Below are positions 22,156 through 57,544 of a stretch of DNA of 64,000 bases, piece by piece. The position numbers and the translations under genes were made by a program. This DNA is from an uncultured Candidatus Saccharibacteria bacterium. Lineage in GTDB: Bacteria > Patescibacteriota > Minisyncoccia > Phycocordibacterales > UBA918. The notes beneath the pieces were generated by a model. It made no database searches. It saw nothing but the letters and a program-made list of their open reading frames with translations, and had not been told where the DNA came from. The stretch is from NCBI GenBank assembly GCA_964350985.1, contig CAYGLK010000002.1:229406-293405 (forward strand), given 5' to 3'. How positions within the stretch are numbered: position 1 is the stretch's first letter; each line of letters begins with the position of its first letter.

Positions 22156-22656
22156 CTAAATAGACACACATTTCCTTGATTCATCATATCCATCACTAGA
22201 CATGACAATTCCCCTACTTACTCCCTCACCAAGTAAAGTAGTAGTTGTAATATCTGGCCAGTCAGAAAACTCTACTGCAACAGCATCAACTGAAAGTGTC
22301 AGACCTGTATAGTCCAACTTGTTTGTTGCATAAGTAGCAATATCACCAGCACCTTCAAGACCTGTACCTTGCAAGTCACCACTGATGAAATAAACACTTG
22401 AGAAATCGTTTGATTTAACAGCTTTTACATTCCGTATAGACCCACCTCCATTTATATTCAAACCACTGTTAAGTCTTTCTACGAGTGTGTCTGGTACCTC
22501 AAGACATCGTGAGGTAACAGTGCTAGTGCTCCCTACTCCTGCTGGCTCCGCATCTGATGCTGTATCTATTACAACCGCAACTATTATTACAAATACAATC
22601 AGTACTAACCACGTCACTGGTGAAGTTTTCTTCTTTTCAACTTTATCTTGCTCCAT
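22156..22656 (-). CDS. membrane-anchored hypothetical protein
   Basis: N-terminal TM 'WLVLIVFVIIVAVVI' followed by a Gly/Thr-rich extracellular domain. Confidence 0.45.
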   Translation of the reverse strand: MEQDKVEKKKTSPVTWLVLIVFVIIVAVVIDTASDAEPAGVGSTSTVTSRCLEVPDTLVERLNSGLNINGGGSIRNVKAVKSNDFSSVYFISGDLQGTGLEGAGDIATYATNKLDYTGLTLSVDAVAVEFSDWPDITTTTLLGEGVSRGIVMSSDGYDESRKCVSI

Positions 22657-22906
22657 AAATTTTGGTATTACCTAGTAAACCCCAGAGCAGAACATACAAA
22701 AAGCCCACTACCAGGTGGACCGAAGTCCTACTAAGGTTTCCCCTAATAACGTTGAAGACGCAACCTGATAATGGGTTGTTTGTCTTCAACGATTTTCGAC
22801 CATACCTCTGTCTCACGACAAAGGGTTAGGTCATTGATATTCAGTTGTCATCCAATAGTATTTCTTTTGATCGTTAATGTAAACCTTGCCGTTAACTAGA
22901 TTGTGG

Positions 22907-53367: not shown

Positions 53368-53847
53368 TTAATACTTGATTCGGTTGTGGGCCAAACAGGT
53401 AACTCCCACAGCAATGGCATCGTATTCATCGTCTAAGGCATTTTCAGGTAGGTTTTTCAATAGTTTTTTTAACATTAGAATAACGGCGTTCTTATCACTC
53501 TTGCCGTAGCCCGTAACCGCAACTTTAATCTCTTGAGGTCCGTATTCATAAACGGCGCAACCAGCTTTCTTTGCCAGGTATAAGATGACCCCTCTGGCTT
53601 GAGCCACCAAAATAGCAGTTTTTACATTTTTATTAAAAAATAAAGTTTCAATTGCCACTGCATCAGGTTTATATTTTTGGAGCAAGTTATCAATCTCATT
53701 CCCGAGCAACATTATTCTTTCAGGAAATTCTTTCACCTTGCTAGTCTCAAAACAATTAGAATATAAAACAATCTCACCCTCAGGACCGTTTTCAACTAGG
53801 GCTATTCCTAAGCGATCGTAGCCGGGATCGATTGCAAGTACTCGCAT
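53368..53847 (-). CDS. ruvC: Holliday junction resolvase RuvC
   Basis: 'MRVLAIDPGYDRLGIALV'. Confidence 0.9.
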   Translation of the reverse strand: MRVLAIDPGYDRLGIALVENGPEGEIVLYSNCFETSKVKEFPERIMLLGNEIDNLLQKYKPDAVAIETLFFNKNVKTAILVAQARGVILYLAKKAGCAVYEYGPQEIKVAVTGYGKSDKNAVILMLKKLLKNLPENALDDEYDAIAVGVTCLAHNRIKY

Positions 53848-53849
53848 AG

Positions 53850-54398
53850 TTAGTTGGGGTCGCCCAAGCTATCAGCGCTAGTAAAAACCTCTTGAACATC
53901 AGCGTGGTTTTCAATTGCTTCAATTAGGTTAGCTAATTTTTCTCCGTCTTCGTCAGACAGCTCAAGCGGTGTCGTTGGTACATAGACACCATCTTTTTTT
54001 TCAAAAGCCCATGAAGCAGAACCAGGAGTAGCGATTTCAAAACCGCTTTTATGTAAGAGATGTTTGATCTCTGGAGCGGTACGGTTGTTATTGTCGGTAA
54101 TAGCAGTAATAAGTAATGCCGCTCCACCTGGACCATAGGCTTCAAAAAGAACCTCTTCTAGCTTAGTGGTATTACTTCCTTTACCTTTTTCAACAGCGCG
54201 ATCAATATTATCTTTCGGCATTGAGTCTTTTTTAGCTCGTTCAATAACTGCCGCCAGACTAGGGGAAGAGATGTCGCCATTAACTTTAATAGACTCTAAA
54301 GTAATTAACTGCGAGTATTTAGAAAAGACCTTACTTTTTTGTGAGTCAGCTGCCGCTTTTTTGTGTTTTATTTTTGACCACTTATTGTGTCCAGACAT
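53850..54398 (-). CDS. yebC: YebC/PmpR-family DNA-binding protein (short)
   Basis: 'MSGHNKWSKIKHKKAA' is the canonical YebC N-terminus. Confidence 0.85.
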   Translation of the reverse strand: MSGHNKWSKIKHKKAAADSQKSKVFSKYSQLITLESIKVNGDISSPSLAAVIERAKKDSMPKDNIDRAVEKGKGSNTTKLEEVLFEAYGPGGAALLITAITDNNNRTAPEIKHLLHKSGFEIATPGSASWAFEKKDGVYVPTTPLELSDEDGEKLANLIEAIENHADVQEVFTSADSLGDPN

Positions 54399-54406
54399 AA
54401 TATTAT

Positions 54407-55411
54407 TTAAACCCCGTCTTTGTATTGATCTAGGTGATTATTAGCTTCCGCATTAGTTACTCTACCTCGAGGAGTTCGCTCAAGTAAGCCGAGTCTAATT
54501 AGATAAGGTTCAAGTACGTCTTCAATAGTTGACTGCTCCTCTCCAGTTGCGGCAGCAATAGTATTTAGTCCAACCGGGCCGCCGCCAAACTTATAAATAA
54601 TAGATTCCAAAACCGCTCTATCTGGTTTTCCTAGACCGAGGTTATCTATCTCAAGTAATGAAAAGGTTTTATTGACCACATCTAATCCCATTTTTCCATT
54701 ATCTAACTGGGCCATATCTCGGCAGCGCTTCAGTAAGTAGTTAGCTGTACGAGGCGTAGCCCGACACCGCTTGGCGATGGCGAGCATAATGTCTTCCTGG
54801 TGTTCGATTTCAAGAATTTTAGCTGAGTGAGTTAGGATTTGAGCAATTTCTTCATCACTATAAAACTCTAACCTAAAAGTTCCTCCAGAAAAACGAGATC
54901 GGAGCGGTGCAGAAAGCATGGAGATTCTGGTAGTGGCCGCAACTAGGGTAAAAGGAGGGAGGTCTAGTTGTACGGTTCTGGCAGAAGGACCTTTGCCGAT
55001 GATAATATCCAAAACTCCAGACTCCATTGCTGGGTAAAGTACTTCCTCGATTGTTTTTGAAAGTCGGTGAATCTCATCAATAAAAAGAACATCTCCAGGA
55101 GAGAGGTTGGTTAGGATAGCGGCCAAGTCACCAATCTTTTCAATTGCCGGACCTGAGGTGCTACGCATATTTGTACCCAAGGTCTTAGCTATCAGGTGAG
55201 CTAGGGTCGTTTTTCCAAGTCCTGGAGGACCATAAAGTAGCACGTGTTCAGCAGCGTGTCCGCGCTCTTTGGCAGCAGTAAGTAAAATACGTAAATTCTC
55301 CTTAATTTTTGTTTGACCAATATAATCTTCCCAAGTTTGAGGGCGTAAAGTTTGGTCTAAATTACCGCTCAAATCACGAGCGATTGGTTTTTTTGTAGCA
55401 GCATTTTCCAT
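54407..55411 (-). CDS. ruvB: Holliday junction branch migration ATPase RuvB
   Basis: AAA+ '[11 protein letters not shown]' and the RuvB C-terminal wing. Confidence 0.95.
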
Positions 55412-55483
55412 TTGTTCATTCTAGCAAATTTATCAATAATTTACCTATGCGAGACAATAAAATACCAAGGAAAGGCCTAGGTG

Positions 55484-55512
55484 TTGACAAAAAAATATAT
55501 CTGTGCTAGTAT
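55484..55512 (+). promoter_or_regulatory. consensus sigma70 promoter TTGACA-17-TAGTAT
   Basis: Perfect -35 hexamer with 17-nt spacing. No protein-coding gene lies downstream on this strand. Confidence 0.6.
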
Positions 55513-55518
55513 AGCGAA

Positions 55519-55790
55519 GTAACTCGTTCTCCAGCGCCAATAAAACGGCGCGCCACTACTGATCTTAATATTCCAGAGGATAACTCTCTAAGCAACCTGA
55601 GCACGTTGCGAGGGTTTTGTGGCGTTCACCGTTGAGTGAGAGTGCGGCAAAATTCCTTAGCGCGGTGTTCACTTTCAATGCGGAAGCTTGCTTAGAGAGT
55701 TATATTCTGGAAGCGGATCTGTAAGGAACGATTTATAATTTGACTATATCATACTAAAGTTAAAAACAAGCTTGACCCAAGCTTGTTTTT
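55519..55790 (+). ncRNA. candidate structured small RNA (6S-like long interrupted closing helix); identity unresolved
   Basis: Sits downstream of the consensus promoter. CCAGAGGATAACTCTCTAAGCAA (55573..55595) pairs with TTGCTTAGAGAGTTATATTCTGG (55688..55710) as a 23-bp helix with one G-U and one mismatch. It ends at the intrinsic terminator 55762..55790. No ORF. Confidence 0.35.
55762..55790. terminator. bidirectional terminator (sRNA / pilB)
   Basis: aaaaacaagcttg-accca-caagcttgttttt. Confidence 0.7.
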
Positions 55791-55816
55791 ATATCTCAGA
55801 ACAATAGCGGCTTTAA

Positions 55817-57544
55817 CTAGACGATGTGTGACAAAAATAAATCCGCATCATCATCTTTTTTAACTTCTGGAGTATCTTTAAAATTTGGGATCTCGATCAT
55901 TCTTTCTAGTTCTGCCATGGAAGTATCTCCGTTTACTACTTTTTCAATTCCGTCTTCAAGCATGGTCGGGATACCCTGGTTTTCTGCTGCTTCCAAAATA
56001 ACGTGCTCTCTTGGGTCGCTGATGACTGCTTCTTCAACTGCCTGGTCCATTAGGATCGCTTCAAAGATTGCCGCCCGTCCTTTGTATCCAGTGTCACCAC
56101 ACTTCGGACAACCAACAGCTTTGTATAAATTTAACGGACTGGTAACTTGGATGTTCCCCGGGTGTTTTTTTAGTACTTCAGTAATAGTATGAAATTCTTC
56201 TGCGCTAGCTTCATAAGAAACCTTACACTCCTGACAAAGTTTTCTAACTAAGCGCTGCCCCAAGACAGCATTAACAGATGTTCCTAAAACTCGAGAATCT
56301 ACCCCAAGGTCAATCAAGCGAGCGAACGCCGCCGCCGCATTATTAGCGTGAAGAGTAGAGAATACTAAGTGTCCGGTTTGAGCAGCGTGAAGAGCGGTTG
56401 AAGCTACTTCACCATCACGGATTTCTCCGATGAGAATAATGTCAGGGTCTTGCCGGAGGATGGCTCTAAGTCCAGAAGAAAAAGTATAGTCCTCACTAGT
56501 TTGAGTTTGAACAATTCCTTCTATTTTATACTCAACTGGGTTTTCGATAGTGATTATCTTTACTCCTTCCTGGTGAGTGGCTCTGAGGAAAGCATAGAGC
56601 ACGGTAGTCTTACCTGAACCAGTTGGACCCGTAGTAAGAATCAAGCCGTTTGGTTTCTTCAATTCCTTTTCCATTATTGAAAGCAGAGTTGCGTTCATTT
56701 GAATTTTATCCAAAGTGTAACTAGCTACTCCAGAGTCCAAAAGACGCATTACCATTGATTCACCAGCCGCCCCGGGGATAATCGAAGATCGAACATCGAT
56801 CTCTTGTTCTCCGATTGTAAAAGTAAAACGACCATCCTGGGCTTCTTTTCTTTGATTCAATGTCATTCCCGAGAGTAGTTTTAAACGAGACATTAACCTT
56901 TCATAAATATAGTGATCAATATCAAAAACATCTTGAAGTACACCGTCTAAACGGTAACGAAGACGGACGACGTTTTTTTCTGGTTCGATGTGGATGTCAG
57001 AGGCTTTTAGTCTCAGAGCTCCGGCTAACATTAGTTCTAAGGTTTCGGTAATTCTCCTAGAGTTATTTAGAGTGCCAACTTTTTGCATTAGGGCACCAAC
57101 GTCGTCTTTTTTACTGATGCTTTTTGAGAAATTAGTGATTTCGTCCGCACTAATATCAAAAACACCAATTTTAGAACTGGTAGATTTTTCAATATCTGCA
57201 TAACGTTTCCAAGCGTGCTCTAGACTGGCAGAAGAGCACATGTAAACCTGTATTCCTTGTCGGTTATTTTGTAGTTCCTCAAGAGCTTGTTTAGTAGTTG
57301 GGCTGGTAGGGGTTTGTGCGGCTACTGAAAGGGAGTCGTGTTTAAAATCAAAAACCACTAATCTTGCTGCACGGGCTTTTTTTTCTGGATATAGTCCAAT
57401 GGCTTCTGGGTTAAGAGTGTAGCCTTTGAGATCGATATATTCAAAACCATACTGCGGAGCCAGTGTCATTACCAGTTTTTCTTCTTCACCACGACGGAGT
57501 TCGTCTAAGCGAGTGTTGGCAAATTTATCATTAAAATTAAGCAT
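55817..57544 (-). CDS. pilB: type IV pilus assembly ATPase PilB/GspE family
   Basis: 'LILTTGPTGSGKTT' Walker A and the tetra-Cys motif 'CQECK...CPKCGDTGY'. Confidence 0.9.
   Translation of the reverse strand: MLNFNDKFANTRLDELRRGEEEKLVMTLAPQYGFEYIDLKGYTLNPEAIGLYPEKKARAARLVVFDFKHDSLSVAAQTPTSPTTKQALEELQNNRQGIQVYMCSSASLEHAWKRYADIEKSTSSKIGVFDISADEITNFSKSISKKDDVGALMQKVGTLNNSRRITETLELMLAGALRLKASDIHIEPEKNVVRLRYRLDGVLQDVFDIDHYIYERLMSRLKLLSGMTLNQRKEAQDGRFTFTIGEQEIDVRSSIIPGAAGESMVMRLLDSGVASYTLDKIQMNATLLSIMEKELKKPNGLILTTGPTGSGKTTVLYAFLRATHQEGVKIITIENPVEYKIEGIVQTQTSEDYTFSSGLRAILRQDPDIILIGEIRDGEVASTALHAAQTGHLVFSTLHANNAAAAFARLIDLGVDSRVLGTSVNAVLGQRLVRKLCQECKVSYEASAEEFHTITEVLKKHPGNIQVTSPLNLYKAVGCPKCGDTGYKGRAAIFEAILMDQAVEEAVISDPREHVILEAAENQGIPTMLEDGIEKVVNGDTSMAELERMIEIPNFKDTPEVKKDDDADLFLSHIV

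Follow-up and report, generated by a model that had tools for sequence, protein, structure and literature searches.

The candidate phyla radiation (CPR), or Patescibacteria, accounts for a large share of bacterial diversity, its members have tiny genomes, and to our knowledge almost none of its non-coding RNAs have been characterized experimentally. Among the well-described stand-alone RNAs of bacteria, 6S RNA is described as having irregular closing stems in which bulges recur periodically. By definition, a large central bubble separates the closing stem of 6S RNA from its terminal stem, and the molecule serves as a mimic of an open promoter (PMC3847290). Here we describe an RNA gene that runs divergently from ruvB in a 64,000-nucleotide stretch of contig CAYGLK010000002.1 (GenBank assembly GCA_964350985.1; this whole 64-kb stretch is called the window). 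Members of the same RNA family are present in about 100 Parcubacteria-type CPR genomes or contigs; in 22 CPR genomes and in 75 contigs from metagenomes they lie beside ruvB. The RNA is a new family, and a new RNA class, to which no relative can be assigned; to be an orphan structured non-coding RNA (ncRNA) is itself a familiar situation.

The RNA gene between ruvB and pilB

In window coordinates, a 405-bp gap (55412-55816) separates ruvB from the gene of a PilB-type ATPase (pilB), and no open reading frame (ORF) of more than 37 amino acids was found within it. The gap holds the following elements of a transcription unit.

55484-55489, plus strand: -35 hexamer TTGACA of the RNA promoter, read from the sequence and conserved in homologues
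55504-55512, plus strand: extended -10 element TGcTAGTAT (TG at 55504-55505, TAGTAT at 55507-55512), with a 17-nt spacer from the -35
55519-55795, plus strand: predicted primary transcript of about 272-277 nt, from the promoter and terminator positions
55761-55795, both strands: bidirectional intrinsic terminator (AAAAACAAGCUUG-ACC-CAAGCUUGUUUUU), shared with the convergent pilB

Both transcript ends are predictions, the start being put about 7 nt past the -10 element and the end at the terminator U-tract. An earlier note on this DNA had described a perfect sigma70 promoter with no ORF downstream. The lack of a downstream ORF is borne out by the empty gap. TTGACA-17-TAGTAT is indeed present, and TTGACA-N17-TGnTAnnnT occurs at this single site in the window (0.19 sites expected by chance); TAGTAT matches the consensus at 4 of 6 positions, so the promoter is near-consensus and the word perfect was an overstatement. 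Positions 55484-55512 thus combine the features of a sigma70-type promoter, namely, a TTGACA -35, a spacer within 16-18 nt, and a TAnnnT -10, here with an extended TG, and this promoter is probably the strongest in the window. The strong bidirectional terminator claimed in the same note is present as well: an 8-bp, GC-containing palindromic stem lies within 55761-55791, and because it is flanked by an A-run and a T-run it can be read as a terminator in both directions. A GC-containing hairpin followed by a U-tract at 55761-55791 is what characterizes intrinsic (rho-independent) terminators. As predicted from these signals, the promoter, the ORF-less RNA, and the intrinsic terminator make up a self-contained unit on the plus strand.

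The plus strand of 55519-55790 folds at -107.4 kcal/mol, compared to -67 ± 4.7 kcal/mol in dinucleotide shuffles (z = -8.65), whereas the minus strand reaches only -87.1 kcal/mol (z = -5.4). The 23-bp near-perfect long-range helix that had been noticed by eye (55573-55595 with 55688-55710) contains 21 Watson-Crick pairs, one G-U pair, and one mismatch. In the minimum free energy (MFE) fold, this helix is part of the closing helix P1, which encloses a long arm (P3) and a short hairpin (P4); the GC hairpin pointed out in the earlier note is likewise found in the leader. The elements of the fold are as follows.

55571-55595, plus strand: 5' arm of P1, the long closing helix (includes CUCUAAGCAA); 24 pairs with 55688-55712 in the MFE fold
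55688-55712, plus strand: 3' arm of P1 (UUGCUUAGAG...); pairs with 55571-55595 in the MFE fold and by covariation
55598-55671, plus strand: P3 long arm, with its outer helix at 55598-55604 / 55665-55671
55607-55624 / 55643-55662, plus strand: middle part of P3, with conserved AGG (55611-55613) and CCU (55655-55657)
55625-55629 / 55636-55640, plus strand: apical hairpin of P3 (MFE fold)
55672-55686, plus strand: P4, short hairpin CUUUC-AAUGC-GGAAG, immediately before the 3' arm of P1
55519-55565, plus strand: clade-specific 5' leader, pairing with the 3' trailer (55519-55530 / 55725-55736 and 55557-55565 / 55715-55723; MFE fold)
55534-55538 / 55547-55551, plus strand: GC hairpin gcgcc / ggcgc of the leader (sequence and MFE fold)
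55713-55760, plus strand: 3' trailer, pairing with the 5' leader; its opposite strand holds TGATATAGT

A G-C-containing helix of 7 bp runs straight on from P1 into P3, and the three-way junction has 2 + 0 + 1 unpaired nucleotides (about 3) and no P2, a hairpin present in many relatives. Pairing between leader and trailer (55519-55565 / 55715-55736) lengthens the rod. In the homologous locus L001, a hairpin of other sequence occupies the same position in the leader, and the ends pair much as they do in the window.

Homologues, covariation, and family architecture

Homologues were sampled from ruvB-centred or pattern-retrieved loci only. In loci matched by RuvB, the DNA upstream of ruvB carries a consensus promoter that faces away from the gene, followed by a long inverted repeat around some 100 nt. 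A covariance model, R1, was built from 20 aligned cores, the window RNA among them. R1 recovered all 20 training cores and two members from outside the training set, L062 and L074, both upstream of ruvB and in the same orientation as the rest. The window scores 102.7 bits (E = 3e-26) against R1, a high score that is expected of a training sequence. No match was obtained in about 55 ruvB loci of Firmicutes, Chloroflexi, and other non-CPR bacteria, and no second copy was found when the 64-kb window was searched with R1. Metagenome contigs were scanned independently of context with a DNA pattern of the two P1 arms alone. Of the 80 loci returned, 75 match R1 (74 at 71-121 bits and L137 at 37.5 bits). 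As a control for specificity, we took 28 chance matches of the pattern in viral contigs; R1 rejected 28 of 28, and carriage of the RNA by phages was therefore dismissed. As far as sampled, the family is confined to Parcubacteria/Paceibacteria-type CPR (Minisyncoccia), and there the RNA is kept across many Paceibacteria lineages, down to a RuvB identity of about 57%.

The helices are supported by compensatory change. In 20 diverse cores aligned and folded with MAFFT and RNAalifold, double compensatory changes were found in 28 of 36 pairs. In the set of 92 distinct sequences, standard pairs occupy 93.8% of pair cells (82.7% in shuffles) and 334 cells carry double changes (90 in shuffles); none of 500 shuffles reached the observed values. 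Sliding the 3' partners by 1-3 columns lowers pairing to 39-55%. RNAalifold was also run independently on the 94-sequence alignment, which was fitted to R1 and is dominated by one subclade; it returned P1, the outer and inner helices of P3, and pairs in the P4 region, with compensatory changes in 30 of 37 pairs, and a further covarying pair supports P2. The 20-sequence alignment gave the same structure. Considered by helix, P1 shows compensatory double changes in 19 of its 22 pairs, with 97% of cells paired (92 distinct sequences), and P4 shows compensatory changes in 4 of 5; the outer and inner helices of P3 covary, and its pairs G69-C150 and G70-C149 are invariant. These results agree with the earlier note, which had placed a structured non-coding transcript between ruvB and pilB and had named covariation in related genomes as a check: the z-score of the fold and the plentiful compensatory changes in about 95 homologues clearly favour a real structured RNA.

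Pair cells also reveal which strand is selected. G-U or U-G combinations fill 533 cells, compared to 78 for A-C or C-A, an excess that indicates that the structure is selected on the ruvB-divergent strand, which is the plus strand of the window. Selection thus acts on RNA structure, on the plus strand. On the same ratio, and on the weaker fold of the minus strand, the candidate explanation of a ruvB-sense leader encoded on the minus strand was rejected. The long inverted repeat might also suggest a DNA-level repeat or a mobile element. That explanation is effectively refuted, given the strand-specific selection at the RNA level that the G-U excess represents, the single copy in the window, and the identical genomic site in all cases.

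Members share a core of 137-180 nt. P1, a nearly bulge-free closing helix of 20-25 bp, brings the two ends of the RNA together; its sequence is AAUCUCUAAGCAAU / AUUGYUUAGAGAUU in most lineages, and in L005, L011, L016, L019, L062, and L072 it has been swapped wholesale with compensation. P2, an optional hairpin whose length varies and which often has a UUCG cap, is missing in the window, L001, L002, L011, and L017. P3 is an arm of 60-80 nt with a conserved motif of internal loop and tandem wobbles, AGGAC...UGG / CUG...UAUCCU. From its base, this arm comprises a variable outer helix, an invariant GG/CC within AGGA/UCCU, a small internal loop (C / NA), a further helix, and a variable apex; the inner helix ends in the UGG/CUG segment, where a conserved U-G wobble is followed by an invariant G-C pair. 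The P4 hairpin has the consensus (U)ACUUU...AAAG(G). The helices meet in a four-way junction in 74 of 92 members, mostly with linkers of 0, 2, 2, and 0 nt (typically 4 unpaired nucleotides). The window RNA has P1, P3 with both AGG/CCU and UGG/CUG, P4, the promoter, and the position divergent from ruvB, and lacks only the optional P2; the middle part of its P3 also carries the U-G wobble that adjoins the invariant G-C of the UGG/CUG motif. Although the P1 of L062 is wholly different in sequence, its P3 motif is retained, and no other part of the RNA is as good a candidate for its functional core.

The clustering of the few invariant nucleotides in one small internal loop of P3, beside the U-G wobble and the G-C pair that never varies, could also mark the active or binding site of a ribozyme or a trans-acting ligand-binding RNA, for which a compact multihelix junction is typical. 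We regard such an RNA as very unlikely: it would be one with very few conserved unpaired nucleotides and a loop whose sequence is altered in the clade of the window, no ribozyme or riboswitch model matched, and a mutual-information scan for pseudoknot or tertiary covariation gave no pseudoknot signal, returning only the known helices and clade-correlated noise.

The transcription signals are conserved along with the core. Upstream of it, 92 of 94 homologues have a TTGAC(A/T/C) -35, a spacer of 16-17 nt, and a TGn-TAnnnT -10, and the two in which no promoter was seen are cut by contig ends. The -35 is TTGACT or TTGACC in five homologues and otherwise a perfect TTGACA. Between promoter and core lies a leader of 10-180 nt; a short one puts the predicted start of the transcript at the foot of P1. 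In many members a U-run directly follows P1 at the 3' end, and the purine-rich 5' end pairs with this U-tail, while others, including the window RNA, have a separate hairpin terminator with a U-run. In most of the 75 loci a convergent pilB lies downstream, and the RNA is thus not the leader of a downstream gene. A riboswitch or another cis-regulatory leader for that gene was rejected on this ground, a terminator and then a convergent pilB being found in the window and in most of the 75 loci.

Linkage to ruvB and the neighbouring genes

Without exception (100% of pattern-retrieved contigs with enough flank), ruvB lies immediately upstream of the RNA gene and divergent from it, the distance to the RuvB match being 56-316 nt. 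The ruvB ATG even lies inside the -35 of the RNA promoter in 56 of about 79 loci (about 70%), TTGACAT being the reverse complement of ATGTCAA; this overlap would explain why the linkage is invariant. In about 50 loci the leader of the RNA contains, on the ruvB strand, an extended -10 element (TGCTATAAT) located 46-135 nt upstream of the ATG, so that the RNA and ruvB promoters would point toward each other across a stretch of some tens of base pairs.

The loci with the ATG inside the -35 include L006 (around 2857-2863), L007, L008, L009, L012, L013, L015, L017, and some 48 others; the window is not one of them. In these loci RuvB begins with Met-Ser, its first codons being constrained by the promoter on the opposite strand.

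In the window, 72 nt separate the ruvB ATG (55411) from the RNA -35 (55484), and the two promoters are adjacent and back-to-back without overlap. The flanking genes and the ruvB-strand signals are as follows.

54407-55411, minus strand: ruvB (Pfam RuvB_N, AAA_lid, and RuvB_C)
55412-55483, minus strand: upstream region of ruvB, back-to-back with the RNA promoter; read from the sequence
55418-55426, minus strand: TGCTAGAAT, an extended -10 element that ends 6 nt before the ruvB ATG; no Shine-Dalgarno sequence
55745-55753, minus strand: extended -10-like element TGATATAGT, on the ruvB strand beyond the RNA core, just inside the terminator
55817-57544, minus strand: PilB-type T2SSE ATPase (PilB/T2SSE), convergent with the RNA gene; the pilB stop codon is at 55817

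The position of TGCTAGAAT 6 nt before the ATG, with no Shine-Dalgarno sequence, suggests that the ruvB mRNA of the window may be leaderless. L001 is arranged in a similar way, with TGGTAGAAT, 6 nt, and the ATG. At the site equivalent to TGATATAGT, L001 and L002 have TG(C/A)TATAGT on the ruvB strand. TGATATAGT may be a promoter of ruvB or an antisense promoter, and transcription from it would run antisense through the whole RNA gene. The ruvB promoters named here are predicted from the sequence, which offers several plausible extended -10 sites, none of them decisive.

The gene ruvB belongs to a ruvB-yebC-ruvC operon (53368-55411, minus strand) without ruvA. Since the RNA promoter is interlocked with ruvB, either back-to-back or with its -35 over the ATG, transcription of the RNA and transcription of ruvB-yebC-ruvC probably interfere with each other. 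The RNA gene might then be mainly a cis regulator of this operon. Its strong opposed promoter would act through occlusion, collision, or antisense overlap with the ruvB 5' untranslated region, and the structured RNA would chiefly terminate, insulate, and stabilize that transcription. The divergent ruvB at every locus, the ATG within the -35 in most of them, the face-to-face promoters implied by TGCTATAAT, and the ruvB-strand TG(A/C)TATAGT beyond the core in the window, L001, and L002 all fit such a role. However, interference does not call for a conserved four-helix RNA, and strong selection at the RNA level is seen on P3, P4, and the junction, with conserved internal motifs; moreover, the promoters in the window stand 72 nt apart, and those of ruvB are predicted. 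On balance, we consider a purely cis role rather unlikely, and trans and cis functions could coexist.

In loci of Firmicutes, Chloroflexi, and Saccharibacteria, ruvA directly precedes ruvB and thus holds the position that the RNA gene takes in RNA-bearing loci. Among the RNA-bearing contigs, only L091 shows ruvA, at a distance of 11 kb. The idea that the RNA replaces RuvA was rejected because L091 carries both, so that RuvA is not generally lost.

Several further observations concern the surroundings of the gene. The best genome matches of the window RuvB are metagenome-assembled genomes of Kaiser-, Nomura-, Zambryski-, Ryan-, and Sungii-bacteria, which are CPR of the Parcubacteria/Paceibacteria (Minisyncoccia) type. 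The only Rfam family found in the 64-kb window is LOOT (RF03000), whose presence likewise locates the ruvB-divergent RNA in a genome of Paceibacteria-type CPR. This LOOT RNA is full-length (22717-22832, minus strand; 70 bits, with a gathering score of 46.4) and sits about 60 nt upstream of an ORF of 166 amino acids (22156-22656, minus strand). Within the operon, the YebC/TACO1 homologue (53850-54398, minus strand) has just 182 amino acids; the top-scoring stretch of its match is limited to the initial third of the Pfam profile for the second and third domains, and a second stretch is also given. It may be a shortened form.

Known RNA families and the proposed role

We compared the RNA to all families of Rfam 15, applying the gathering threshold to the whole window and E ≤ 10 to the RNA locus, eight diverse homologous loci, and L007. 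At E ≤ 10, no family matches the window RNA or the nine homologues; the chance hits obtained (STnc370 over the terminator, microRNA models, and snoRNA models) are not at the RNA. In the full 64 kb, the Rfam scan detected no genes for tRNA, rRNA, RNase P RNA, signal recognition particle (SRP) RNA, transfer-messenger RNA (tmRNA), or 6S RNA, and ARAGORN reported neither a tRNA nor a tmRNA in 55300-55900. The literature that we searched on ncRNAs of CPR, Patescibacteria, and Parcubacteria and on ruvB yielded no description of the RNA, and the main text of Weinberg 2017 mentions neither ruvB nor the RNA.

Three universal RNAs were considered and set aside individually. SRP RNA has no Rfam match here, and the P3 apex varies in sequence and length and has no GNAR tetraloop or helix-8 motifs; tmRNA is negative in both ARAGORN and Rfam, with no tRNA-like domain or tag ORF; and RNase P RNA has no match at E ≤ 10, with no CR-I to CR-V and a core of about 140-180 nt where about 330-400 nt would be expected. 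A very divergent form of one of them would suit the housekeeping-style promoter, yet RNase P RNA and tmRNA are both far longer than the new RNA, and this proposal, like that of a DNA repeat, is as good as refuted. The earlier note had found no motifs of these three RNAs by eye, which the model searches confirm. Its fallback assignment, an unclassified small RNA (sRNA), also agrees with the Rfam result.

The same note had seen a resemblance to the architecture of 6S RNA in the long closing helix. This did not hold: RF00013 and RF01685 (6S-Flavo) are unmatched at the gathering threshold and at E ≤ 10, the central bubble is absent, and 6S RNA as such was rejected. A compact junction is found in place of the bubble, with covarying P2, P3 outer helix, and P4, and for want of the large central bubble the 6S interpretation fails on a defining feature. 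A more divergent RNA that binds sigma70-RNA polymerase as a mimic of an open promoter was weighed separately. It would account for the rod shape with closing and long distal stems, the sealed ends, and the very strong predicted promoter, and the core of 137-180 nt is of similar size, although the window transcript of about 272 nt exceeds the usual 180-200 nt. In the commonest subclade, P2 has only 3-4 bp, so that the junction could open on its 5' strand (about 15 nt) and keep a hairpin on its 3' strand; the window contains no canonical 6S RNA but is a small part of the genome. Nevertheless, neither 6S model matches any of ten family members at E ≤ 10; where the bubble should be (PMC3847290), the window has the 7-bp G-C-containing helix; P2 is stable in several lineages, where it is UUCG-capped or 9-11 bp long; and P1 forms an A-form duplex without bulges over at least 22 bp. 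A 6S-like polymerase-binding RNA is therefore improbable in our view.

We favour, with moderate confidence, an uncatalogued, stable RNA of Paceibacteria that would act in trans by binding protein, either as a component of a ribonucleoprotein (RNP) or as a regulator that titrates a protein. Such an RNA would be abundant, and one or more proteins would recognize the P3 motif and the junction. This role is suggested by where conservation lies, which is in the helices and small internal loops rather than in exposed loops, together with sealed ends, variable apices, and a promoter that is probably stronger than any other in the window; a cis leader, or an sRNA that acts by base pairing, is less probable. 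A more specific version is put forward tentatively, with somewhat less confidence than the general one. In it, the RNA would be an abundant, RNP-type "housekeeping" RNA specific to Parcubacteria/Paceibacteria, with their genomes of about 1 Mb, P3 would bind a dedicated protein, and the gene would be firmly tied to the Holliday-junction machinery, the output of RNA and that of ruvB-yebC-ruvC being coupled reciprocally through the overlap of promoter and start codon. In its extreme form, the compact four-way-junction RNA would be a junction decoy acting on the recombination machinery, which is unlikely because members with a three-way junction exist, the window RNA included.

Several observations weigh against a trans-acting, protein-binding RNA. 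The role is deduced from the placement of conservation, and the transcript ends are predicted. The invariant linkage to ruvB could instead mean a function in cis. The pattern used on metagenomes is specific to one subclade, so that the 94-sequence alignment overstates the conservation of P1 sequence. Finally, the clade of the window has AGGGU rather than AGGAC in the P3 loop and has no P2, departures that make it uncertain which parts are essential.

The strong promoter and the retention of the gene over many Paceibacteria lineages imply that the RNA likely matters to the biology of these bacteria. It is a candidate for a new RNA-protein complex, and R1 is a ready-made covariance model for annotating Paceibacteria genomes. 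The RNA can also serve as a marker that assigns orphan metagenomic RNAs and contigs to the Paceibacteria lineage. In addition, the family provides a clean case from nature in which the promoter of a structured RNA is fused to a DNA repair gene at its start codon, a possible switch based on transcription interference.

How does this RNA relate to the systems already described? Like 6S RNA, it is stand-alone, strongly promoted, and ORF-less, and its core of about 150-200 nt is a largely double-stranded rod in which a long closing stem holds the 5' and 3' ends together and a second long stem lies distally. Unlike 6S RNA, it has a compact three- or four-way junction with covarying side hairpins and a near-perfect closing duplex. 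With the housekeeping RNP RNAs (4.5S/SRP RNA, RNase P RNA, tmRNA, and Y RNA) it shares a terminal helix that joins the ends, a strong promoter, and conserved internal-loop motifs in a long arm, which suggest recognition by protein; it has none of their signature motifs and matches none of their models. Overlapping divergent or face-to-face promoter pairs, which act through interference or short 5' antisense overlap, are a third point of reference. Most relatives likewise have the RNA promoter on one strand and the predicted promoter and start codon of ruvB on the other within the same few tens of base pairs, but here one partner is a conserved structured RNA rather than a short antisense RNA, and in the window the promoters are only adjacent. 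Finally, orphan structured ncRNAs such as the raiA motif and LOOT (RF03000) are, as is the new RNA, multihelix molecules known by conservation and covariation, restricted to lineages, and not cis leaders of a downstream gene. The new RNA differs from these orphans in having its own sequence and fold outside all Rfam families, an unusually rigid genomic address at which it always diverges from ruvB, and, in about 70% of relatives, an overlap between its promoter and the start codon of that gene.

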